From Paraspadella gotoi (lineage: Eukaryota; Animalia; Chaetognatha): 64,000 nucleotides of DNA. This document shows, one piece after another, positions 5,501-60,317 of the stretch (its first letter is position 1; each line of letters opens with the position of its first letter). The notes under the pieces were generated by a model. The model saw nothing but the letters and a program-made list of their open reading frames with translations, was not told where the DNA came from and made no database searches. Location: NCBI GenBank assembly GCA_051294375.1, contig CM119263.1, forward strand, positions 30,802,053 to 30,866,052, read 5' to 3'. The position numbers and the translations under genes were made by a program.

Positions 5501-8500
5501 TAGTAGCAAAAATAATATCGATTCTTGATTAGAAAATGCAGCAGATGATTTAAATTAATACGTAGTCCAGCCCACTTTGTCTTAGGGTTCAAATTTAATC
5601 AATTCTGTTGATAATATTTTAGCAATATTGCAAAAAGTGTTTTTTTTGCTGAATTCCTCGATAGAAATCACTGCCAACAGTGGTCAGATATAAGGACATG
5701 TTAAGTTGAAGACAGATTGAGCTAGATTGTGAAAAGAAATTAAATGGTGAAAAATTGAGAGAGAGAGAGAGAAAACATTAGAAAATTATACATTGTGCAA
5801 TGTGTGGCGGTTAGACTAGAAGCGTCACGTGCTTCCGCTTCTCTGACTTCAAATGTTTATTTTGAATGATTAAAATGTTTCCAGAACAGTCTTTATTTTG
5901 TTCATCAATAAAAACAGACGTTAACAAGGTGAGATGAACGGTAAGGTGAATCCAATGTGAATGGTTAAATGAATGAACTTGGTAAGTTACAATAATTTAT
6001 GCCAGTGACATCTACTAGAGAAACATATAATGCTATACTCGATTATAGTGTTCTTATGTTTTACATTTGGTTTATTTCACATGCTACAATAGTTATAGAA
6101 GGGAATGGAATATCTAATATTAAATCCGGAGTGGCGATAGTGAGTGACTCTGAAAGTTAGTGATTCAATCCTATAACAAAAATAAATTAAATATTTTTAA
6201 CAATTAACTAATTTAATAAATAAATGAATGTGAATATTAAAAGTAAAAAAAGGAAAATTTGAGAGATATGTGAATTAATATAAAAAATTCAAAATTCAAA
6301 AATTAAGAAAGAGCTCAAAATGAGCTGGCCCCCTTTGGTTGGAGCAAATGAAAGGCCTTGATGATGTGGTGAAGTCATTAACGCGTCAATGGTTGAGGGA
6401 CATGTTGGTCGAGCCTGTGTGTGTTGGGCTAGGGAGGCTTCCTTGTGGGAAGAGTCCAAAGGCTACTCTAAAGTCTCTCTGGCCTGGTCCGCCTGTCGAC
6501 TGCCCTCTTCTCGCCTGCTGGCGAGATGGGTGGTTGTCCATTCTGGCCGCTTTTGCGACATGAGTTGTGGAATCCTCCCCTTCCTCCTGCAGCCGCCTTT
6601 TGGGTGGGCGCTCATTCATTAACATTAAAATATCATATACGCTTATTCAGTAACATTAAAATATCATATACGCTCATTCATTAACATTAAAATATCATAT
6701 ATGCTCATTCATTAACATTAAAATATCATATACGCTCTTTCATTAACATTAAAATATCATATATGCTCATTCATTAACATTAAAATATCATATACGCTCA
6801 TTCATTAACATTAAAATATCATATACGCTCATTCATTAACATTAAAATATCATATTTTAATATTTTATAAAAGTTTCTTATTTTTTTCTGACGAATCCGA
6901 AACTGTTTTTAAAATTAAAAAAAATATTATTTTGAAATTTTATGACTTTGTAAGGATATTATTATAAAGAAAATTCTATTTACTTTACTGTTATGCTAAA
7001 AAAAAATTTTAAAAAGCATCATTTTCATTAATTACATATACGGAGGCAGCAAAAGAATATTGTTAACTCGCTTAATCTTTTCATCACTCCACCCTAGTGG
7101 TTAGGGTGAAAAGGGTTTAGGTTTAGGGTAATTAGGTAATAATTTTTTTTAATAAAATAAGTATTTTTAATTGGTTTTTCAAAAGATGCAACAACCCCGG
7201 TCGTAAAATTTTGCCCAGATTGCTTTAATATCTATGATAAATTATCCCAACCTAATACTACTTGCTCGTATTTGTTTATGACAGCTGCCTTCAATACATT
7301 TCGAATTACATAAAAAGTGAGCTGTTTTTGCCTGGCGATGTGATTATAAAAGAAGGAGATGTGGTTTTCAAGGCCTATTACGTATTTCATGGATCTTGCA
7401 ACTTGACATTCAGTCACGGTTCTTGCTTCGTCTTTAATAAAGGCAGCGTCTTTTGCGAAAAATTTCTTTATTCACCAAATAGTGAGTTAGTGAATAAGAG
7501 CATAATTTTTAGTCGGATCTGCTTTCAGCAGATCCCGATTCCATAATTCACTTTGTCAGTCCGTCGGTCCGCCCCCTCAATCTTGTCGGGCATTCGTTAT
7601 ATCATGTCAGAACATCGAATTATGATAAATTATGCAAAAATAACATTGTCCGTCCGTCTGTCTGTCTGTCCGTCTATCCCACCTTAGCAAAAAACTCCAA
7701 TTACTCGTTATTGGATGGATGGATTGGAATGAAATTTTGTGTGTGGGTAGCAAAGTGTGGGATTGAGTTGGAAATCAAGTTTCGATGGAATCGTGTGAGT
7801 GGAAATAAGTTTCAATGGAAAAAAACAAAAAAATGATTTCACTATTTGAACACCAATTGCTTATGAGTGGATGGGGCGATTGACTTGAAAATTTTGTATG
7901 TGGGTAGGAAAGTGTGTGAATAAGCTGGAAATCAAGTTTCGATGGAATCGTCTGAGTGGAAATGAGTTTAAATGGAAAAAACAAAAAACCTGTTTCACTA
8001 ATTGATTATGCTTCTTTTTCTTTTATATTAAATGTAAATGCAAGATGTATTAATTAATCAAATAATTAATCAGTTAATTAATCAATTAATAAATTAATTA
8101 ATACATAATTAATTAATCGGTCAATTAATCGATCAATTAATTATACAATCAAACAATTTATTTAGTTATCTATTAATTAATTATTCAATCATTCAATTTA
8201 TTTATAAATTAATTAATTATTTAACAAATTAATCAGTCAATCAAGTCAATCGTTATCGGCATTATTGTCCTAATCGCCGTCATCGTCGTCGTTGCTTTTG
8301 TCATGGTCAGTGACGAAAAGACCTAAAAATAAACATTTTGGATCAAAATAATTAATTTATTAATGAATTTTTTTTTAGTTTATATAGTCTGTATTAATTA
8401 ATTACCGCTAATTATCGTGGGCAGATCCGACATTGTTTGCTCCAACTTGTTTAATTAATTATCATATTTGAAATTAGTTTACCAGGAAATATTTCCGGTG

Positions 8501-10918
8501 CTTCAGTCGCAATGTTCGTTTGAGTCTTTAAATCTTTTTCTTTGGATAAAATATTAAAGATTGAGCAACTTTTGAGATGGCCTGTGATACCCAAGACACG
8601 TAGCACTTTACCTGTTAGGGTTAAGATGTTTGGAGCCTCAATACCTTTTTACGCTTAGGATTTGAGATGGTGCGTGAGCCCTTTAAGTTATTGCGACTGT
8701 GTTGTGAGGCAGATTCTCCGCCACAGATCATACAGTCATGTTTGATCAAACAATGTCGGATCTGCCTACGATAATTAAGCGGTAATCAGCTAATCAGATG
8801 ATAAATCACGATAATTCTTTCAATTTGTGATCCTAACTGATTCTAACAGATCCTAACTATTGGCTGCGTCCATGTATGTAAATGGCTTGCAAGGGATTAA
8901 ACTGAACTGCAACTTTGGTACAAACAAATAATCTTTTTAACTTGCATCATTTTTCAACTTGTATCATTTTTTCAATTTTCATAATTGTTCTAACTTGCAT
9001 CATTTTTTTTAACTTACATCATTTTTTTAACTTGCATCATTTGTCAATTTGTATAATTTTTTCAACTAGCACTATTTTTTCAACTCGCTCAATTTTTTTA
9101 AGTCACATAATTTTTTAAACTTGTATAATTTTTTAAGCTTGCATCATTTTTTTAATTCACATCCTTTTTCCAACTTGCACCATTTTTTTAACTTGCATCA
9201 ATTTGTCAGTTCGCATCATTTTTTCAACTAGCACCATTTTTTTAACTTGCTCAATTTTTTAACTCTCATAATTTTTTTTAAACTAGCATAATTTTTCAAA
9301 CTTGTAACATTTTTTAAACTTAAATCATTTTTTAAACTTGTATCATTTTTTAAACTTGTATCATTTTTTAAACTTGTATCATTTTTTAAACTTGTATCAT
9401 TTTTTAAACTTGCATCATTTTTTCAATTTGCATCATTTTTTTAACTTGCATCTTTTTTCATTTTGCATCATTTTTTCAATTTGCTTAATTTTTTTAATTT
9501 GCATCCTTTTTTCTACTCGCATCATTTTTTTAACTCGCATCATTTTTTGAACTTGCATCATTTTTTAACTTTAATTAATTAATTAATTAATTAATTAATT
9601 AATTAATTAATACAAAAAAATAAAAGTCAATTTGACTTAAATTTTTATTATTAATGCTTACTTATAAATGTATTAATTAATTAATACATTTATAAGTAAG
9701 CATTAATAATAAAAATTTAAGTCAAATTGACTTTTATTTTTTCCATGCAAATTCATTTCCACTCCATTTCAATTCCATCAAAACTTTATATCCTGCTCAA
9801 TCACACACTTACCTGCCCACACAAAATTTCATCTCAATCTATCCATCTAATTATGATTAATTCGAATAATTAAGGGTCAAAACTAGTAAAAAGATTTCAG
9901 TAAATGTGACTTATGTTTTTCCATTTAAATTCATTTCCACTTGCACGATTCCATAGAAACTTTATATCCAGCTCAGTCACACACTTTCCTAACCACATAC
10001 ACAATTTCATTCCAATTCATCCGTCCAATCACGAGTTATTGGAGTTTTTTATTCAGGTGGGACGGACAGACAGACAGACAGACCGACGGACGGACGGACA
10101 TAATTTTTTTGTATCAAAATTCGATGTTCTGACATGATTTAAGTGAGTGCCCGATAAGATTAAGGGGGGGGACCGACGGACCGACAAAGTGGATTCTGCT
10201 GATAAGCAGATCCGACTAAAAATCGGGCCACTTCACATCAAACTTATATACATACTTGAATTTTTTTTAAATTTAAAAGTAAATTAAACTTTATTGAAAG
10301 ATTAACACTTTAGCATAAATTTTTAAAAAATCGGACTAGTTGTTTAAGAGCAATGATTTTTTTAAATGAAGTATTCCACTACAAAGCTTAACATAAAAAA
10401 TCTTAAAAGCATAAGGATCGTCGCAATCGCATAAGAAAAGTCTGTATTGACGACAAATTTTGATACTAAAAAATCAAATTTGAAAAAGAAAAAAAAAAGA
10501 AAAAAAAATAAAATAAAAAAAAATAAAATAAAGAATAATAAATATAAAACAGTAAAATAACTTATTTTCGAGTTTAATTTTTAGCAAGTGCTAAGTCTGG
10601 AGAGACATTACTGAAGGTACTTTTGTTTTACTTTTAGCCCGCATAAGCGAGCAGTTTGATCAAATGCGACCTATCTAAACACTGTCAGCATTCCCAGACA
10701 AAAGACAAAGTGAAACTTGAATCAGACTGACGAAGTGAAGTAAAGACTAAAGTGAAGTAAAATGAAGTAAAGTAAAATAAAATAATAAAGTAAATATATA
10801 TTAAAAAAATATTATTCTGATTGATATTTAGAATATTTAAGAAAAAAAATCCACAAAAATCTCGGATATAAATTTGGGAATAAATGGCGATAATAAAAGT
10901 TTTTAGAGGAAATTAATC

Positions 10919-10953
<35 letters not shown>

Positions 10954-13003
10954 AAGAAGCCAAATCGTCTTCAGAGGAATCAGCAGCGGTAGCAGCAAAG
11001 GCACCCAGAAAAAAAGAAAGAAATCAAAAGGCAGTAGCAGAAGCAGCAGGAGAAAAGAGAGAAAAAGAAAATCCCCTGCAGAGCCAGCTGCACTCTTTTT
11101 TTTCCCCTATGTCTATGATTATGAATCAGTGACTAGGGAAAAAAGAGAGAGACATGTAATTAAAAGAGAAAAGAGAAAGAGAAAGAAATATGAAAATAAA
11201 AGAGAGACAATTTGTTTGTTTTGATAAAACGTAAACAAAACATATTTAATAACTGTCCAGACTCAATTTTAAGCACATCGATGATGAGAAGCTGTATATA
11301 AATTTTCAGCTGCAAATTTAATCATAAAAAAGGCGATCTATAATTTGGAACGCCGACGACAACCACGACGATGACAACGACGACGACGACGACGCCACTT
11401 ATGGGCAAAAGCGTTACAATATCGTTGCAAATGCTAAGCGATTGCGACGATAAAAAGCGTTACAATATCGTTGCAAATGCTAAGCGATTGCGACGATAAA
11501 AAGCGTTACAATATCGTCGCAAACGCTAAGCGATTGCGACGATAAAAAATCTGATTACTTTAAAATTAATATTTTTCCTTTTAATATTTGATATTCTCAA
11601 CGAAGGAAGTAGGCGTGGTTTATTAAGTGAGAAATAGGAGGAGTTTTATTGACATAAGAACACGTTGGGATGATAATAATTAACATACAAAATATGTAGA
11701 TTATGCAGAGAAAAGGCAGGCAATAAACAATATAACAAATAGTCCATAAGGAGTTTGATGTTAATTTCTTGAAGGTAAGTTGAAGAGTGATCTCGTTCCT
11801 TCTCTCGTTTCTCTGCCGTCGGTTTCCTGAGGGAAGCCTCCTCTCTGATTGGTCAATCAGAAGAAAAGACGGAGAAGCCAAGAGAGGCAAGTTACTTGAT
11901 AATCCATTCTCTGCGTTGTTCTTTATAGTAGATTAAAAATGTAAAAAAATTATATTGGCCTTCCGGAAGGATAGCTGGACACCTGGTGTGAAATATCTTT
12001 TCTATTTCACGCTCGTAAAGTCTAAGGTTTGCGGCTTCGCCCGTCCGAAGGAGTTAACGTGAGTCTTAAGGAAGGAAAAACGAGAGGTGTTTGAGTTTCA
12101 AAGTTTTTATTTGTACAAAAGTATGAGATAATAATTACCTTCCAAAAAATCCCGTAAAAATCTGGTTTCTTCTGGGCAAGCGAGTTTCTACTTTGGTATG
12201 AAACGGGACTAATCAGCGGAGGTAAAAATATTGACCACAAAGATATTATCAACCCAGTCACTGACGGACTCGAAACTAGACAACCTTTTTCTCACCTGGA
12301 TTGACCCAGATCCCTAAATAATAATTTCAAAGTTATTGAAAAACATGATAAATAACTGGTTAATGATTCTGAAGCTTTTAAATAAAATATGATTTTCCCT
12401 ACTGGTTTTGGAACACTAAAGTAAAAAAAATCTTATCTTTTAAACCACCTGACCTTTGTAACAAAATTTTTTTTTATTGATTTCTTTTTTAAAAAAATAT
12501 TTTTCTTATATAATTTTAAAAATTTTTTATGGAATGTCAGGAATTTTAAGTTATAAAGTGGCGCGGTATTTTTGCACAAGTGTGCATTTATAAAAATTCT
12601 AACAGGTCAAAAATGATAGAAACCTATGATAGTTGAGCTGGCCTTCCATTTAATGTGCCCTTAACAACTCCACCCTAGAAATTATAAATGATTTAAGAAA
12701 AATATTTTGGTTACCTTCAATGTGTAAGGATGGAGCCTTTCTACTACCCAGTATATCTATTCATCTGAAAATTCTGAAACTTTTAAAATATTTTTTTATA
12801 TTTTTTATATATATGTAATTGAATATTGTAAAACACATAAATTAATTAAATTTTTATTATCCACTTAAGGGGCAAGCTTCTCCGTAAAAGCATCACAGTT
12901 CTGCATCTGTTATTCGCTTCATCACGAAATTTTGACTCAAATTTTAATTTCCCTCGCAAAATTTCACATCGCAGTTGCTGAGTCCAATACGCGGTGCGTA
13001 TGA
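150..13003 (+). CDS. Divergent cyclic-nucleotide-binding-domain 6-TM cation channel (HCN/KCNH/CNG superfamily); 5' end probably outside the window
   Basis: Exons ~150-1326 (frame open from 143; acceptor ttag|g; donor AG|gtaac, phase 2), 7285-7481 (acag|C, donor A|gtgagt, phase 1) and 12870-13003 (taag|GG; stop TGA 13001-13003, or donor gtgcgt at 12994 to a phase-matching exon 14494-14644). The joins read ...KKLGNS-CLQYISNYIKSELFLPGDVIIKEGDVVFKAYYVFHGS...GSVFCEKFLYSPN-RASFSVKASQFCICYSL, a C-linker plus CNBD. Pore/S6 segment NIGGGYIKPQNVLERLFSCFLMLFG. Confidence 0.8.
1450..1500 (-). ncRNA. Minimal type I hammerhead ribozyme motif (PLE-type)
   Basis: Minus strand reads CTGATGA a GGCT-taaaggcaag-AGCC GAAAC AT GTC, with a palindromic ACATGT stem III. 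Confidence 0.65.
2596..2650 (+). ncRNA. Minimal type I hammerhead ribozyme motif (PLE-type)
   Basis: CTGATGA 2609-2615, stem II GGCT/AGCC, GAAA 2635-2638, GTC cleavage triplet 2642-2644, AATAAA just downstream. Confidence 0.65.
3288..3335 (-). ncRNA. Minimal hammerhead ribozyme motif, third copy
   Basis: Minus strand CTGATGA a GGCT-tgtatacag-AGCC GAAAC AT GTA; stem II kept while its loop has changed. Confidence 0.6.
5670..6610 (-). mobile_element. Diverged, truncated second copy of the pLTR-associated element
   Basis: 5670-5800 resembles 1600-1730 and 6305-6610 resembles 1900-2210 (shared gaaagagctcaaaatgagc and ctcctgcagccg). Confidence 0.55.
6609..6854. repeat. 31-bp minisatellite, ~8 copies
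   Basis: Unit cgctcattcattaacattaaaatatcatata. Confidence 0.9.
7285..7481 (+). CDS. Channel exon: CNBD beta-roll
   Basis: FLPGDVIIKEGDVVFKAYYVFHG is a typical CNBD motif; phase matches both neighbouring exons. Confidence 0.85.
7506..8452 (+). mobile_element. Helentron-associated (HINE/DINE-1-like) non-autonomous element, family A
   Basis: T-run start, subterminal inverted repeat gtcggatctgc (7512-7522) / gcagatccgac (8421-8431), internal (CTGT/CCGT)n tract. Confidence 0.65.
8930..9570. repeat. ~18-bp degenerate minisatellite (aacttgcatcattttttt)
   Basis: More than 30 imperfect tandem units. Confidence 0.85.
9615..9742. repeat. 128-bp perfect palindrome
   Basis: Arms are exact reverse complements centred at 9678/9679 (gtattaattaattaatac). 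Confidence 0.9.
10398..11549 (-). mobile_element. HINE-like element, family C
   Basis: subTIR atcgtcgcaatcgc (~10417-10430) / gcgattgcgacgat (11530-11544), (GAC)n tract; 5' 46-47 bp unit triplicated at 11408-11548; a matching 3' end of another copy lies at 24-63 on +. Confidence 0.55.
12870..13003 (+). CDS. Channel exon: CNBD C-terminal strands and helices
   Basis: RASFSVKASQFCICYSLHHEILTQIL aligns with the canonical RRTASVRAxTYCxLYSL motif; phase 1 acceptor. Confidence 0.7.
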
Positions 13004-13614
13004 AATGTGATAAAATCACAAATCACATAAGCTGATAGTCTAATCAAGTAAACGGTACAGAGTTTGGAAATCTAAATAAAAGTGTTTTACTATCTAGGAT
13101 AAAAGTATCACATTTTTAGAGAAGGATACCTAATCGAATACTTATTCGATTTTTAAAAAATCAGAATGTTTCAGAATCTATCTTAAATTTTCTTTCAGCA
13201 GCTTTCTTCCATTTTTTCATTGGTCGAATTTTTTAGATATTAGAGGTAAAAAAAGATCGCTACCTCAAGGCAAAAAAAATTAGATTTAGTTTTCCACCAC
13301 TTTTAGTATTAAACTATTTGTTATTAGTTTGAATTGAATTAATTATTTTTAATTTTTTTTTTATTTTGGGAATGCCAAAGATACTGCACCTCTCTTTGGT
13401 TCATAAAAATAATATTGTAGCTCTCAGAAAAGAGGGAAAGACGCGTAACATTAGTAGCGGGGCTGAAAAAATTTTATTAATGGTGTGGAAAAACATTTTA
13501 CCGTCATACCTAAATTCGCTGTATGAGAGCATGCCCTGACAAATGTAGACAGTCGTCGATGCCGAGAAAGGTTATACCAAATATTGAGAATGTTTTACCC
13601 ATATTTTGTATATT

Positions 13615-14304
13615 TGTAGTCGGGCATTGCCTAGGTTCACCCCGCCTATAAGCATGACTCTTTCAGTTGTGACCCGGTGGCTCATTGAGTAAAGCCATCA
13701 GCTCATGACCACTAGGTACTAGTTTCAATCCCAACCCGGTACCTACCCTGTGGGAAGAGTGAAGACGGCCATAAGCCGCCTTGGGGGCGTGGCAAACCCT
13801 CAAGCCTGGTTCCAAGCCCAGGACCCTTTCCATGTCTGCTAGAGGGGGTTATAGAAGTTATGGATAGTCATCTTCTGCCTACTTAGCGCCTTATCCATAC
13901 TGGTGAGCCCATCCTGTCGAACGTATTCCAACCTTCTGATTCCAGGCCCATGGATGTGCCGAAGATTGCTCCCCTCCCTCCACCGGAAGCAGTGCAGGGT
14001 GGGTTACAATCTGGGGGGCATGTAGTCGGGCATTGCCTAGGTTCACCCACCTATAAGCATGACTCTTTCAGATGTGACCTGGTGGCTCATTGAGTAAAGC
14101 CATCAGCTTATGACCACTAAGTACTGGGTTCAATCCCAATCCGGTACTTACCCTGCGGGAAGAGTGGAGACGGCCGTAGGCCGCCTTGGGGGCGTGGCAA
14201 ACCCTCAAGCCTGGTTCCAAGCCCAGGACCCGTTCCATGTCTGCTCGAGGGGGTTATAGAAGTTATGGATAGTCATCTTCTACCCACTTAGCGCCTTATC
14301 CACA
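13615..14304 (+). mobile_element. Complete TRIM (non-autonomous LTR retrotransposon) with a tRNA-like sequence in each LTR, Helenus-like
   Basis: LTR1 13615-13899 (TG...TA), LTR2 14021-14304 (TG...CA), PBS tggtgagcccat at 13901, PPT ggggggca at 14013-14020, 4-bp TSD TATT (13611-13614 / 14305-14308); A box tggctcattgagt in both LTRs and B box ggttcaatcc (intact in LTR2, gtttcaatcc in LTR1). Confidence 0.85.
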
Positions 14305-14493
14305 TATTTTTTATTGAATAAATGAACTTTTCAACAATTATGTAATATACTTTTTACCTAGATAGTACTTCAAAAATGCAGAATAAAGTAAAATGCAATT
14401 ATTGATCAAAAATACATTTTCTATACTACAATGAATAATATTTTTGAAATTACATAAGGACTAAACTATCCCGTTTCATCTTTCTTGCATTAG

Positions 14494-14644
14494 CTCAATA
14501 ATTTACGGATTCACTATCACCGAGAAGAGTAGCCTAACTACTGATTCCACGGAATGTAATAACCAAGATATCATCAAAAACTTGGAAATTGAAGCAAACT
14601 TTAACGAGGTTCTCAAAAAATTTATTTACAATTCAATGATTTAA
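14494..14644 (+). CDS. Possible terminal exon of the channel gene
   Basis: Polypyrimidine ttag|C acceptor, phase 2, matches donor CG|gtgcgt at 12994; reads SIIYGFTITEKSS...NSMI*; no family motif. Confidence 0.3.
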
Positions 14645-16087
14645 TACTATATAATATATAGTATATATTGATGTATTGATGAATGCCCGACCGAGGTCTT
14701 CAAAACCGACTATCATTAATCTTTTTAAATTTTACGGTTGCATTGATATTAGATATACTGTCACGAAATGTGAGAAACGCGAAAAATCATACAGTACTTT
14801 TCGCTAAAAAAAATTTATGATAATCGAAAACGTATTCCAGTTATTGAGCTCCCCCTCTCAAAAATTCTTGACGGATGGTACTTTGTAGTAGACATTTTTG
14901 GATAATATCAAATCATTTATTCTTTTACTAAGTCGTACGAAAAACCCTTCGCGGTTGTCAAGTCAAGACTTTTCTCGATATTTCAACAGCGACACGAGTT
15001 CTTTGAAAAACTTGCTTGGAAATTCGTCCATTCCGGTCGTTAGGAAATGTTCTTTTTTTTAGCATTGTATCTTTTTATTGTCAGTGTGTAATTAAAAGAA
15101 CTAGAAATATAAAATGAAATTTACTAATCTGGTTTTAAATGAAATAAATAAAAACACTTTTGAAGAGACAGAAATAATTATTCTGAGTAAGTGACAGATT
15201 CATTAAATATAAGCAGTCCAAGAGCTCCGGATCAGGCTGTAACACCGTGTGCAGTAGACCTTTCCATATATGAAAAGTTTTGAAATCAAAAAACGAGTAT
15301 TGTGTAAAATTTTTTGAACATTTAAAAAAAAAAATCACAGTAAATGCTGCCAACTTTGAAAAAAATGACAAAAAATGGTGAAAAAAGGACTTTTTGCTAA
15401 ATATCTTTAAAAGCTTTATTGCTAGAGGGACGAAACCCAAACTATCTTTTAGAGCGGAAAAAATTGATTATGTTACATACCTTGCATTATAAACTAAGTT
15501 AGTTTTTTACTAAAATTTTTTTTTTAAAACCTATTGTTTTGGGCAATTTTTGATACAATTTTTTAAAAAAGAATATTTTTAACAATGTTCGTAAAATATT
15601 TTTTAAAAAAAATTACAGCGAATTGAATAAAGAGATAATTGCCTTTGTTTTGCTGAGAGAATTTTTAAAAAAGGATTATCGGGTAAAAAGTTATAATTTT
15701 TTTAAATTTAAAAAAAAACTTTTCTTAATAATTATTTTTATTTAATAGGTTTGAACTAGGCTAAAGGGAAAAAGGGAATGCACTTTTCTCAGAGTAAATA
15801 AAAAATATTAAATTCTGATTGGACAATGGGTAACTTTAATATTTTGTCGCACCAGGTCATTAAAGTTTTTTTTAATTTTTATCATTTTATAATGGAATTA
15901 TGACTTTTAAATAAGGTATTTTTAAAATTTTTTTTTCTATATAAAATAAAAAAAAATTGACAAAAGCGATTAAATGATTAAAAATTGATGAGACAAAAAG
16001 AGTAAAATTAATGAAAGTTAAGCAACTGAGAGAAGAGTTGCTTGCTGCTTACCGATCAAGAAAAAAAAGTCATCGTCTATAGTGCCA

Positions 16088-19000
16088 CACGGTTCTTTTT
16101 ATAGGAGGAAAAAGAAAATGGAAATATACCATCTCTGGAATGATAAAAACCTGAAAGGTTGCTGTCTGGACAAGAGCTTAGGCTAAGTCGAAAAATTTGT
16201 CCAAACTCAGTTTTTTTTTAAATTGTAGTTGAAGTTGGTAAGTTAATTTTTGAGATAATTTGATAACTTTTGTACTAATTTTGCAAAATATAGACTCAAT
16301 TCAAACATCTATATGTCAAACGATATCAGTAAACCGAGAGCTTTAATTTAAGACCACTCCCAACTTTCTCCGACTTTTGGTTAAAAAGTTATTAATCAAA
16401 ATATTTTTTTTTCTTTAAAAAAGTAATGAAATGGTGAGTATTATTGAGAATATAATAAGACTTTAATCTAAAAAATTGAGGATACCAACGAGTTCTATAG
16501 ACAGTCTTCTTTCAATTAATTCATAAATAAAATTTTTCTTCAAGCTTAAATATAGGTACATCATCCCCCCAAAAATTTAAAAAAATATAAATTAAATTTG
16601 TAAATAATTTACATAATGATTTTATATAATTTTACTTAATATATATGGACTAGAAACTATAGGATGTGACCTTCATTTTGAGCCTATTGCCAACTCTTTA
16701 CGATAAATATTTATTGAGATACTACCAAAGAAAGCCCCAAAAATCTTTAAAAAATGTAATTTTTAATTTATTTAAGTCATATCTCGGTGGATATATAACT
16801 TATTTTAAGTCAAATGATTTTATTCAGCTGATTAAAGTGTAAGGCACATATTAAATACCATTAGTAGGGATTAGCAGTATTCGACGAAATTTTTATTTTT
16901 TCTATCGGCCGAAAAATAATAGGGAATTTCATTCCAAAAAACAAGGCTTTTTGAAATATTTACTGTATGGAAAATACTAAAAAGAAAAATTTTATTTTTT
17001 AAATATAGGTACTGTAAGGGTAAGTCTAACTAAAACCGAAAAAGAATCTTTCAAATAAGAAAAATATTGGAATAGTACAGAAAGCAATATTTATTTTTAT
17101 TGTTGCGCAAAAACTAGGCTTTCCTCGCAAAACCTCTGGTTACAGGAGATGCAAATGGGTTTTCTCTCAACATATTGATCATCATTGATTCCCAAAATGA
17201 TGCGCAAAAATGCGCCAGCAGCAGTTCTGGCGATAGTCATTTTATATCATCTTCCTATTGTATATTAAGGCCTATGAATCATCAATATGTATGAAACTGA
17301 TATAATATATTTATTATGATCTTAAGATTTATCATGCCTTTTTTCTGCCTACAACAATTCCTCCTTTGCTAAATATACATGATACCTATAATTATTATAA
17401 TGGGTAATATCTTTATTCATAGTCTTTTTTTTAACCAAGTTCAAATATAAACCTAAAGGACCATTGTTGATCCACAATTTCTGATACTTTTAATACAATT
17501 GGTCCACTGAATTTTATGTAGTATATCTTTGTTTCTTTTTATCTATGATTTGAGTTTTATTTTCGGTATTCGTTTTTTCTTTGATTTTAAAGAATCAAAA
17601 CCGAAAAGTAATCGACTTAGAATCGGAGATTGTATAAAAATAAAAGAGAAAAGAAAAGGGAGGAAAGGGAAAGAGATGAGGGATAAAGTGCGCGCAGTTT
17701 TACGTCAATTTACGCCATTCTACGCCAAAGCATCTTAACTTAATAGCTTTATTTGGAAAATGAAAAAAAGTTTTTACGCCACAAAATTAAATGATATTAA
17801 TATGGTTTTCTGTTCATTTTACGCCATTCTACGCCAAACTTTGTATAAAGAAAGCTGGAAAAATATTTAAATCAACTTAACTGAGTATTTTTTACTAGAA
17901 AATAAACAAAAAGTCTTTACGCCACAGAATTAGATAATATTTATATCGTTTTTTGTTCATTTCACGCCATTTTACGCCACAATTCTTTTCCAAATTTAAA
18001 TATAAACATTTACACTTATTTAATATATATTTAAAATTTTTTTTTGAAAAATCATTAACGCCACATATTTAACTAGGAAATAATACGTTTTGGCGTACTT
18101 TTTACGCACCACAGCGCCAACAAACATGTAAAAAAAAAGAAATCAAATCGCAATCCAATACTACTATGTATTTTTAATCAAAAAAAAGCGTTTTCCAAAA
18201 TTTTGGTTGAATATCCTTGAGAGCAGTAAGGGGCAGAAACGTTACTCCAAATTGACGTAAATCAGTTGGCGTAAATCAAATATTTAAAAGTCAAACTTGG
18301 AATTAACGATTAAAGTACACTTCGATTGGCTTAATATAAGGTTTAAAACCATCCAATAAAGAAAATCAGTATTTTTAAAAATTTTGTGCAATACCCTACC
18401 ATTAGTTGTATTAATTAATTAATTAATTAATTTTCAGACAATTTTACCAAATTTACATATACTTTTGGTTTTTACAGCAACAAAGTACTAAAACAGGTAA
18501 ATAAAAATTGATGATAAAATATGTAAGCCAAAAGACCTTAGAATGTATTATATAGGTTTAAAAATTTTTCTCATAAAGATTTAATGATATAAGACAATAA
18601 AAAAATTTTAAAAATTATATATATAAATTAAAGATTGAAGAAAAATAATGATATACAGTTAGTTTTTTATGATTATTGTAGTGCTTGTAGTAGTAGTCGT
18701 GGTAGTAGGGGTCTCAGTGGTTGAGATTTTTTTGTTGGTATGGAATAATTTTTTTTGGTCATTATAATTGTTGTGGTCAATATTTTTATCATGGTTGTTA
18801 TTATAATTATAATATATTTTAAATAGATATCATATAGTAGTCATAGTAGGTGGTTGTAGCTATTATATCTGTAATAGAACTGAGAATTATGGTATGAATG
18901 TTGTGATTGTTTAGAGTGTAGGAAATGTTTTTATAATATAAAATTTTTTTTTAAATTTACCTACTCTTTTAAGTAACTAAAACTTTTAATAATTAGTGGT

Positions 19001-20100
19001 TTAAGAATATGGCTATCTTTTTATAATATAGAATCATGATAAATAATAAAAAACTAACTGTAATATCATTATTTTTCTTCAATCTTTAATTATATATATA
19101 ATTTTTTTATTTTTTTATTGTCCTTATATCATTAAATATTATGAGAAAAATTTTTAAACCTATATAATACATTCTAAGGTCTTTTGGCTTACAGATTTTA
19201 TCATCAATTTTTATTTACCTGTTTTAGTACTTTGTTGCTGTAAAAACCAAAAGTATATGTAAATTTGGTAAAAATTGTCTGAAAATTAAGTGTCCTGATT
19301 AAATTATGATAAAATAATACAACTAATGGTATTTAATATGTGCCTTACACTTTAATCTGCTGAATAAAATCATTTGACTTAAAATAAGTTATATATCCAC
19401 CGAGATATGACTTAAATAAATTAAAAATTACATTTTTTAAAGATTTTTGGGGCTTTCTTTGGTAGTATCTCAATAAATATTTATCGTAAAGAGTTGGCAA
19501 TAGGCTCAAAATGAAGGTCACATCCTATAGTTTCTAGTCCATATATATTAAGTAAAATTATATAAAATCATTATGGTAAATTATTTACAAATTTAATTTA
19601 TATTTTTTTAAATTTTTTTGGGATAATGTACCTATATTTAAGCTTGAAGAAAAATTTTATTTATGAATTAATTGAAAGAAGACTGTCTATAGAACTTGTT
19701 GGTATCCTCAATTTTTTAGATTAAAGTCTTATTATATTCTCAATAATACTCACCATTTCATTACTTTTTTAAAGAAAAAATAATATATTTTGATTAATAA
19801 CTTTTTAACCAAATATCAGAGAAAGTTGGGAGTGGTCTTAAATTAAAGCTCTCGGTTTACTGATATCGTTTGACATATAGATGTTTGAATTGAGTCTATA
19901 TTTTGCAAAATTAGTATAAAAGTTATCAAATTTTCTCAAAAATTAACTTACCAACTTCAACTGCAATTTAAAAAAAAACTGAGTTTGGACAAATTTTTCG
20001 ACTTAGCCAAGCTCTTGTCCAGACAGCAACCTTTCAGGTTTTTATCATTCCAGAGATGGTATATTTCCATTTTCTTTTTCCTCTCTATAAAAGAACCGTG
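16088..20100. mobile_element. Non-autonomous foldback DNA transposon with CACGG...CCGTG termini and 4-bp TSD (Chapaev/CMC-like)
   Basis: TSD GCCA (16084-16087 / 20101-20104); left TIR 16088-16865 plus 18398-18670 mirrors right TIR 19045-20100 (~1 kb); no ORF. Confidence 0.8.
16866..18397. mobile_element. Nested non-autonomous DNA transposon inserted in the left TIR of the foldback
   Basis: Direct duplication accattagt (16857-16865 / 18398-18406), short imperfect TIR agggattagca / tgcaataccct, ~10 subterminal (t)tacgcca motifs at 17700-18275. Confidence 0.7.
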
Positions 20101-20615: not shown

Positions 20616-20732
20616 AAATAAAAATATCGGTTATGTTCGTCTTAGTATCATTCGTGTTGTAATACTATTAAAAACTATTAGCTAAAGAAAATAATCAATT
20701 AGCCAGAAATTGTAAACAAAGATTTGACAATA

Positions 20733-21690
20733 CATGGTGACAATTTTACAAGCGCCGGTAGAAATACGCTGTCATATTCAAACCAGTGGTTATTTCATTG
20801 ATTTTAAAATTTAGTTGAGTAGAAAATACTAAAACAATTTATGTGTTAAAATTTTATATTGATCAGTTAAGATATGCCTTGACAATGAGTAGAGAAAGTT
20901 GGCTTGTAAAATCGGGTTTCATTTTCCAACTCACTTTTTTAGATTCAATTTTTTTCTCTTACTTTCAGTAAGTTTTCTGAAGAAATTTGAAATAAAATAA
21001 TATTAATTTTATTATCTTCTGAAAGCCCTTTTAAATCTAAAAAGAATGACATACTTACAAATACTGTAGTATAAAATTTAACTGGCCCAGCTTTAATTCA
21101 ATTAGGATACTCAAAAACGAGACATCTTTTTAAAAATCAATAGCTGGAGAGTAAATTTATGATATTTATCAAATTGTGATTGGCTATTTTAAATCCTTTT
21201 TTCTCAGGCTCTTTCATGATACTTATATAAATAATAATATTTTATGTTATAATAATTTAAACAGGTCATATATTTTGAAAAAAGATTTAAAATTTTAAAT
21301 AATTCACTTTTGACACTCTTAATTGAACCAAGGCTGGGCAGCTCACTTTTTAAGTTAGAGCTTTCATAAGTATATCATTCTCTTCATATTTTTAAGGGCT
21401 TTCTGAGGATATTAATATTGTTAATATTCTAATAAACACTTTGTTTAAAAAAGTGCTAAAAGTTTTAAAAAAAATTAAATTTAAAAACAGTGAGTTGGAA
21501 AATGAAACCCGATTTTACAAGCCTACTTTCTCACTCATTGTCAAGGTATATCTTAACTGATCAATATAAAATTTGAACACATAAATAGTTTTAGTATTTT
21601 CTACTCAACTAATTTTTAAAATCAATGAAATAACCACTGGTTTGCAAATGACAGCATATTTCTACCGGCGCTTGTAAAATTGTCACCATG
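20733..21690. mobile_element. Tc1/mariner-type MITE with long TIRs and TA TSD
   Basis: ta|catggtgacaattttacaagcgccggtagaaa ... tttctaccggcgcttgtaaaattgtcaccatg|ta; arms complementary over more than 200 bp. Confidence 0.8.
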
Positions 21691-21753
21691 TAGTCTTGTT
21701 ATTATTTTAAGCAGGAGACAGATTAAGAGAGGGGAAAGCGAGAGAGAGAGAGA

Positions 21754-22327: not shown

Positions 22328-31347
<9,020 letters not shown>

Positions 31348-39899: not shown

Positions 39900-40441
39900 G
39901 GGGGGGAAGGAGTAATGGGAGGTAAGAAAGAGAGGGAGAAGAAAGAGAAAAGGGACAGAGGAAAGGAAGAAAAGGAGAGAGGAAAAGGAGAAAGATAAAG
40001 AATAGAGAAGAATGGGAGAAACAAGAAAGAAAAGGGAAGAAGAAAATGCGGAGAAGAGAGAGATTATAGAAAGGGAAAGGAAATGAAAGGGATTAAGAAA
40101 GGGAATAGAACCAAGGAAAAAGGGATTAAGGAAAAAAGAGGAAAAGAAAAGAGAAATATAAAAATCTGTCAAAATCAGAGCTAGGGAGAGCCGGATAGAG
40201 AGAGAGTTCGTTACGATTGGAATGGGCAAGGAGAGGATGGGTAAAAGATTAAGAGAGAGACAGAGAGAGAGACAGAGAGAGAGAGAGAGGAGAGGAGTAG
40301 AGAGAGAGAGAGAGAGTAATTAAAGGAGAAGAGTGAGGAGAGAGCCAGAAAACCTTTAGAGATTCGCGGACAAAGGGAAGTGTTAAAAATGGTGGCGCTT
40401 GCTAATCTACAGCCGTACTGGAGAGAGAGAGGAGAGAGGAG

Positions 40442-40538
<97 letters not shown>

Positions 40539-40596
40539 CATTCATTCATTTTCTCTCCCTTTCCTTTTCCAGCTTTTTCTTTCTTTCCCCGCTGAA

Positions 40597-60317
<19,721 letters not shown>

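Follow-up and report, generated by a model that had tools for sequence, protein, structure and literature searches.

A Helenus-type TRIM with a tRNA-like promoter and a twister-like module in each LTR

Introduction

Helenus elements (TRIMp3; Kojima 2024) are TRIMs of 311 to 1263 bp which, like the element reported here, combine LTRs bearing A and B boxes that do not form a working tRNA with a PBS, a PPT, and a noncoding interior, and which in animals have a 4-bp target-site duplication (TSD) (PMC10886601). For animal Helenus, the same paper describes tRNA-primed reverse transcription and integration via a Gypsy helper. No ribozyme forms part of the Helenus description, and the accessible text of PMC10886601 names hammerheads only in a reference. 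Cassandra and Ajax TRIMs also share a Pol III-type promoter within the LTR, but theirs is derived from 5S rRNA, and Cassandra termination occurs inside its 3' LTR. Here and below, published systems are described from the accessible parts of each source.

Plant LTR retrozymes (Cervera et al. 2016, PMC4918200) follow a cut-and-circularise cycle. They resemble the element in being non-autonomous, in carrying a ribozyme motif in each LTR together with a PBS, a PPT, and a 4-bp TSD, and in having a predicted blocked fold; they differ in their type III hammerhead, tRNA-Met PBS, and units of 600-1000 nt. No tRNA-like promoter is described for them in the accessible text, and their cleavage and circRNA have been demonstrated, whereas both are only predicted for the element. 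In the literature, LTR retrozymes are described as occurring chiefly in plants and as carrying hammerheads, and those of animals as being non-LTR repeats (PMC7229834; bioRxiv 10.64898/2026.07.22.740005), with cleavage of amphibian hammerheads being dimer-dependent (PMC7229834). Self-cleaving motifs are found in animal retroelements too, namely, the Perere-3 twister variants of S. mansoni (PMC8501958) and animal non-LTR retrozymes (PMC7229834), but unlike the element these are non-LTR and have neither PBS nor PPT. One biological role has been proposed for the twister, in a non-LTR element (PMC8501958), and in the accessible part of PMC10085705 no new twister permutations were found. The literature that we searched, outside of which lay subscription papers, Repbase, and the supplement of bioRxiv 10.64898/2026.07.22.740005, yielded neither a twister-bearing LTR element nor an animal LTR retrozyme.

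Here, we describe a 690-bp element that by its sequence is by definition a Helenus-type TRIM, set apart from the families compared in the accessible parts of PMC10886601. An earlier note on this DNA had read it as a TRIM with a tRNA-like Pol III promoter, a new member of the rare small-RNA-derived LTR class to which Cassandra and Helenus belong. That reading is supported, but it was incomplete: it missed a twister-like module in each LTR and the absence of a Pol III terminator, and with these the likely mechanism changes. We give an even chance to the reading that, in each LTR, the twister-like module likely cuts the predicted Pol III transcript started by the tRNA-like promoter.

Results and Discussion

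Layout, insertion site, and copies of the element

The window, which is the whole 64-kb stretch of DNA analysed, contains the element as two LTRs around a short interior (Table 1). The earlier note had proposed two LTRs of ~285 bp, a 121-bp interior, and a 4-bp TSD, and all of these were recovered, the 5' LTR measuring 285 bp, the 3' LTR 284 bp, and the TSD being TATT. Its claim of a PBS and a PPT in the interior held for the PPT, which is short (merely six G, then CA), while the PBS is putative, 9/10 of its bases matching by eye the honeybee tRNA-Trp PBS of Fig. S2 in PMC10886601. The LTRs are identical at 266/284 aligned bases (93.6%; 14 transitions, 4 transversions, and 1 gap), giving a Kimura distance of 0.067, and the longest ATG frame in the element is 56 aa.

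Table 1. Coordinates of the element, its parts, and related features in the window
Feature	Position	Strand	Remarks
Host-gene GT..AG intron containing the element	12994-14493	+	Same strand; one X6 contig joins across
Left TSD, TATT	13611-13614	+	Empty site: X1, X3, and X6 contigs pass over 694 bases (690+4)
5' LTR, 285 bp	13615-13899	+	3' terminus TA here, CA in 99.7% of X1 depth
TATAA	13647-13651; second copy 14052-14056	+	24 nt upstream of tRNA position 1
tRNA-like unit, 5' LTR	13671-13742	+	A box 13678-13689; B box 13722-13732 with mutated base 13723
Twister-like module, 5' LTR	13750-13833	+	P5 13750-57/13826-33; L1 strands 13761-65, 13772-74
Twister-like module, 5' LTR, rest	P3 13780-13804; P4+L4 13805-13822	+	Substitutions 13763, 13771; predicted cut 13772/13773
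Interior, 121 bp, noncoding	13900-14020	+	
Putative PBS	13901-13910	+	tRNA-Trp-like
Short PPT, G6 + CA	14013-14020	+	
3' LTR, 284 bp, TG...CA	14021-14304	+	
tRNA-like unit, 3' LTR	14076-14147	+	A box 14083-14094; intact B box 14127-14137
Twister-like module, 3' LTR	14155-14233	+	L1 strands 14166-70, 14177-79; palindrome 14171-76
Twister-like module, 3' LTR, rest	P2 14163-65/14180-82; T2 GC 14183-84; P3 14185-14209; P4+L4 14210-14227	+	
Right TSD, TATT	14305-14308	+	First T4 run past the promoter starts at 14307
Diverged LTR fragment (72%)	24103-24226	+	A box 24118, B-box remnant 45 nt on; twister core decayed
3' LTR fragment (85-87%)	52195 to about 52337	+	Every conserved twister nucleotide; core from 52197
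3' LTR fragment (83-84%)	57553-57679	+	Parts with UAA, GC, P3, P4 only

The TSD was measured for the copy at 13615-14304 only, where empty-site contigs skip 694 bp. The insertion site (about 13400-13614 and 14309-14330) lies inside another repeat, uninterrupted copies of which are present in the runs; because this flank is itself a repeat, the empty-site contigs may represent paralogues rather than alleles. The X6 contig that joins across 12994-14493 places the element in an intron. More broadly, 12900-15044 holds a spliced host gene, whose GT..AG introns at 12994-14493 and 14609-14932 are joined in X6 contigs.

Contigs of four public runs (at most three samples) were aligned to 12500-15500. 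X6, which we guess to be RNA, and X7 gave near-identical contigs and may be one data set, and percentages given for X1 are shares of contig depth rather than copy number or expression. The aligned contigs reveal a dispersed, many-copy LTR family. Exactly at 13615, 79 contigs of X1, 90 of X3, and 60 of X5 run off into unrelated flanks; 38, 41, and 42, respectively, run off exactly at 14304, where a further 60 contigs of X2 and 62 of X4 also leave. For X1, X3, and X5, agreement of the flanks was only 0.38-0.39. Both LTR-interior junctions are crossed by diverged contigs, such that the interior and the junctions recur in other copies. Within the window, the three additional LTR fragments that had been noted earlier are all present (Table 1). 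An exact 24-mer of the element had no matches in metagenomes.

The arrangement of a structured body behind a tRNA-like head is reminiscent of a SINE2, and the whole could be two head-to-tail SINE copies, a dimer whose other copies, as the earlier note pointed out, would lack the LTR layout. What was found instead were contigs leaving at exactly two ends into unrelated flanks, which argues against a SINE dimer, as do the recurring interior and junctions, the 56 nt of fixed sequence that precede the tRNA unit, and, in the copy at 13615-14304, TG/CA ends with a 4-bp TSD and no tail. We regard a SINE dimer as extremely improbable.

The tRNA-like promoter

The tataa reported earlier at ~25 nt upstream of a tRNA-like unit is indeed there, at 24 nt. 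The distance from the A-box T to the B-box G53 is 45 nt, equal to tRNA spacing, in 3/3 window copies that cover both boxes (the two LTRs and the 24-kb piece). In dinucleotide shuffles, the combined A- and B-box pattern arose in 21/20,000 sequences and the pattern with TATAA in 0/20,000. As to the B box ggttcaatcc that was said to be in each LTR, the 3' LTR has it, but the 5' LTR carries a T in place of G53 (13723), although 99.6% of X1 depth keeps the G. The tRNA-like character claimed for the A/B unit stands for the boxes and their spacing; on the other hand, the A box is without the G18G19 pair, and neither ARAGORN nor Rfam (E up to 10) called a tRNA. Pairing within the unit is partial (acceptor stem, 5/7; D stem, 3/4; anticodon stem, 2/5). 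A T4 run is absent from both strands of the 690-bp element, and the first in the flank is the T6 at 14307.

The twister-like module in the LTR 3' half

Rfam gave a weak Twister-P5 match in each LTR, at 15.5 bits compared to a gathering score of 37.6 and with E-values of 0.38-2. At gathering score, the whole 64-kb window had no Rfam match, and Rfam found no hammerhead in the element. Guided by the metagenome loci described below, we read the LTR motifs in the P5-type order as P2', GAGGA, 6 nt, UAA, 3 nt, GC, P3, P4 (loop GUUCCAAGC), and P5. With the type-P5 twister (Rfam RF02684), the element shares GAGGA, UAA, GC, and the L4 loop, all arranged as in that type, an identical P4 hairpin, and the T1 partner; it differs in that its P1 is a 6-nt palindrome, its P2 has 2 bp, its P3 is long, its P5 is closed, and its score is below gathering. 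When the fold of the 5' LTR was constrained, P3, P4, and an 8-bp P5 formed.

The P4 loop GUUCCAAGC is also the loop of Sma-1-119 in Table 1 of PMC8501958. The exact 18-nt P4 hairpin of the element occurs at 47 metagenome loci. Twenty of these, picked by eye, were tested in Rfam, and 7 exceed the Twister-P5 gathering score at the hairpin; 8 further loci of the 47, several of them near-duplicates, fit a P1-type descriptor there, and the remaining ones look like chance matches. In all 14 P1-type rows, a loop GUUCC goes with GAGGA and a loop GUCCC with GAGGG, a pairing that the script did not demand. The element family has GUUCC with GAGGA, and on this rule we chose the upstream GAGGA and rejected the downstream GAGGG. 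In 4/8 P5 rows, P1 begins with CGG and finishes with CCG, which are the two halves of the element's palindrome.

Our twister descriptor, written after the motif had been seen, fits one place in the 64-kb window (52197) and 0/100,000 shuffles. The conserved L1 and L4 nucleotides, the T1 and T2 pairing, and P4 are complete in that copy and are the commonest letters of the family, while the complete set is absent from both LTRs of the copy at 13615-14304. The 3' LTR core carries substitutions at 14167, 14168, and 14179. At these and at the two deviating positions of the 5' LTR (13763 and 13771), the twister letter accounts for 98.5-99.8% of X1 depth. With both twister cores and the 5' B box mutated, the copy at 13615-14304 is probably dead. 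Elsewhere in the module, 14206-14230 has no listed substitution at ≥2% and a single insertion, and the P3 loop varies at three places; since the alignment filters favour conserved stretches, this low variation is weak evidence of selection. A G-to-A variant at 14180 (4-17%) preserves the first P2 pair.

It is conceivable that the twister likeness arose by chance, or that it comes from an unrelated SINE or LINE body in the LTR, possibly an RTE-derived or Ceph-type one, which would leave a plain Helenus. The Rfam E-values of 0.38-2 would fit this, as would the post hoc descriptor and the fact that P1-, P3-, and twister-sister registers were tried before the P5-type fitted. Against it stand the 0/20,000 and 0/100,000 shuffles, the 18-nt exact identity with twisters of curated score, the matching T1 covariation, and five separate motifs that are correctly ordered and spaced. 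We consider such an origin improbable.

Other registers were compared by eye and rejected. A P1-type register using the downstream GAGGG at 14247 misplaces P2 and gives GUUCC the wrong T1 partner; a P3-type register using the LTR 3' end has CACU as L1, with no NAA; a twister-sister-like loop is missing the key G and P1 when compared with PMC11620745; and a hammerhead register has no core. Separately, the LTR 3' end (14243-14246 with 14289-14297) can pair with the partners of the P2/P3 strands and folds into a terminal hairpin, which may constitute a second conformational switch.

Evidence bearing on cleavage

We judge active cleavage within the family to be about evenly balanced against its absence. 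P1 has collapsed into the 6-nt palindrome, which can form at most 1 bp within a molecule and 6 bp only in trans, and P2, with its 3-nt strand, forms just 2 pairs. P2 normally has 4 bp, and changes in its length have been suggested to disturb the active site (PMC5408937); a 3-nt P2 is also seen in loci L020 and L035. P1 is dispensable for cleavage in vitro, and reviews and mutational scans describe many helix mutations as tolerated in twister (PMC5408937, PMC5113685). A scan with a 6-nt-P1 twister pattern returned 27 viral and at least 120 prokaryotic loci; among the 147 listed, 3 have P2, P4, and T1 pairing and none is a twister with a palindromic P1. As a side observation, L058 and L071 hold a twister-like motif from phage in which P2 has 4 bp and the P1 segment, 6 nt long, only 1 bp, possibly a natural near-P1-less twister.

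Folding with ViennaRNA, which ignores the two pseudoknots of the twister, gave P1 and P2 a probability of 0.0 in the 52191-52259 copy versus 0.43-1.0 in 7/8 natural P5 rows. Across six stretches and with pseudoknots uncounted, the best fold is 8.0-12.8 kcal/mol more stable than the twister fold. In the main competitor predicted for the 5' LTR and the 52-kb copy, the first half of the palindrome would pair with the bases after UAA and thereby hide the cut site. Pairing of the palindrome in trans is worth -10.7 kcal/mol and would open this blocking hairpin, but a partly imposed swapped dimer scored far less favourably than free cofolding (-23.9 versus -55.0). The 405-nt cut-to-cut unit, taken from the decayed copy, is 63% paired and has no extra stability (z of -0.43 versus 100 shuffles); retrozyme RNAs are >70% paired (PMC4918200). 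The starts of the two 3' fragments precede the predicted cut by about 14 and 4 nt, so that neither is a cleavage product.

Several of these observations suit an ordinary Helenus-type TRIM in which a captured twister has lost catalysis, its hairpins and palindrome serving as a dimerisation or packaging signal and its RNA ends arising where Pol III reads through to T runs in the flank. The collapsed P1, the 2-bp P2, the predicted blocking hairpin, and a 405-nt unit that is not unusually structured would all be expected of such a relic, and a T6 run follows the 3' LTR. In addition, it has been argued for SINEs that the Pol III head would be lost through cleavage by a ribozyme lying behind it (PMC5786205). 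A relic would be harder to reconcile with the sequence-conserved twister positions all being the family's commonest letters, with 14206-14230 being nearly invariant whereas the P3 loop varies, and with an intact hammerhead, identified by eye, at the same place in wasp elements (see below). We assign this explanation a substantial likelihood, somewhat short of even. If the module is inactive, the element would be a new Helenus family with a ribozyme relic, which is of modest interest.

Comparison with Helenus and the Synergus wasp elements

Most animal Helenus LTRs compared in the supplement of PMC10886601 have the tRNA part near the LTR 3' end, whereas in the element it occupies the LTR 5' half, the B box being followed by a further 175 nt. 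Several published Helenus LTRs in that supplement likewise have no T4 downstream of the tRNA part, and Pol III transcription is predicted only, for published Helenus as for the element. DataS1 of PMC10886601, as available, contains no close family; four motifs of the element (9-10 nt) are absent from it or present only out of context.

The nearest parallel is found in the 277-bp LTRs of Helenus-2_SyJa and Helenus-2_SyUm from Synergus wasps (DataS1 of PMC10886601), in which we recognized by eye a type III hammerhead with canonical helices. Its long loop I-loop II pairing is another feature unmentioned in the accessible text of PMC10886601. By eye, the A box of these LTRs lies at ~66, the B box at ~110, and the hammerhead cut after ~151 of 277; in the element, the corresponding positions are 63/64, 108/109, and a predicted 157/158 of 284/285. 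The two thus have LTR length and the positions of boxes and cut in common, along with the lack of T4, a tRNA-Trp-type PBS (putative in the element), and a 4-bp TSD. They also share an 8-nt motif after the ribozyme, which has only 3 occurrences in the 109-kb supplement. The wasp elements differ in having a hammerhead instead of a twister and an interior of 485-487 bp, and there is no wider sequence likeness. The presence of different ribozymes in the same slot of two tRNA-promoter TRIMs argues that the slot is functional. The LTRs of Helenus-2_SyJa and Helenus-2_SyUm would be animal LTR retrozymes already in Repbase.

Measured against LTR retrozymes, the element has the TSD and the PPT, a PBS that is Trp-like rather than Met-like, and no type III hammerhead. 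It may work like an LTR retrozyme, and we class it neither as one nor as a canonical twister.

Proposed mechanism and implications

If the twister-like module does cut the transcript, Pol III would initiate near LTR position 57 and read through both LTRs. The 6-nt palindromes of the two LTRs of one transcript, or of two RNAs, would pair, which would open the blocking hairpin and supply P1. Cleavage between U and A at LTR position 157/158 would then free a unit of ~405 nt. Following the scheme put forward for plant LTR retrozymes, this unit would become a circle, of which a Gypsy-type helper would make a copy using a tRNA primer, probably Trp. A broader and rather doubtful proposal, which we advance tentatively, is that animals have true LTR retrozymes, in the form of Pol III-driven TRIMs with a swappable LTR ribozyme. 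This would be a hammerhead in Synergus wasps and here a dimer-activated twister, which would become active only upon pairing of two LTR palindromes and would free a 405-nt circle for a Gypsy helper.

If a tRNA-promoter TRIM carried a twister in its LTR, this would unite TRIMp3 and retrozymes, two classes that are treated separately, and would account for the way in which RNA ends are set in a Pol III element that lacks a terminator. The element would also offer a short natural construct for dimer-dependent twister cleavage. A further prediction is that more ribozymes are hidden in the LTRs of other published TRIMs.

Other features of the window and of the database loci

The window contains an NR0B-like (DAX-1/SHP-like) nuclear receptor gene at 40387-43642, whose best PDB match is DAX-1. 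The only named match of four is from Aplysia (44%), and the long low-complexity N terminus has repeated SILRRIL-type motifs that are shared with a close relative, P0002. On the strength of this gene, the animal host is likely a lophotrochozoan; other protein searches bearing on host lineage had no matches, and the clusters recovered were generic nuclear-receptor ones. Long inverted repeats at 16088-20100, 20731-21692, 1417-2681, and 7648-10091 have arms of up to 468 bp at 95% and resemble foldback or MITE-type DNA transposons, and a further repeat present in many copies occupies 15206-15500, its left boundary at 15206 being sharp. Of the three diverged frames at 143-1330, 23555-24112, and 27474-28790, one is an ankyrin-repeat frame and the other two are membrane-protein-like, with no Pfam match. 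Among them, we take one to be an ion-channel-like membrane protein and one to be XK-protein-like.

Some of the database loci were distinctive in their own right. L030, L035, L039, L040, L042, and L044-L046 are clear P1-type twisters by the descriptor, with no Rfam match at gathering score. L034 is a degenerate twister-like sequence on an AT-rich contig, possibly animal DNA. L032 and L033, which lie on one 2.5-kb contig, have P1-type twisters and, on the opposite strand, hairpin ribozymes, resembling a viroid-like circular RNA.
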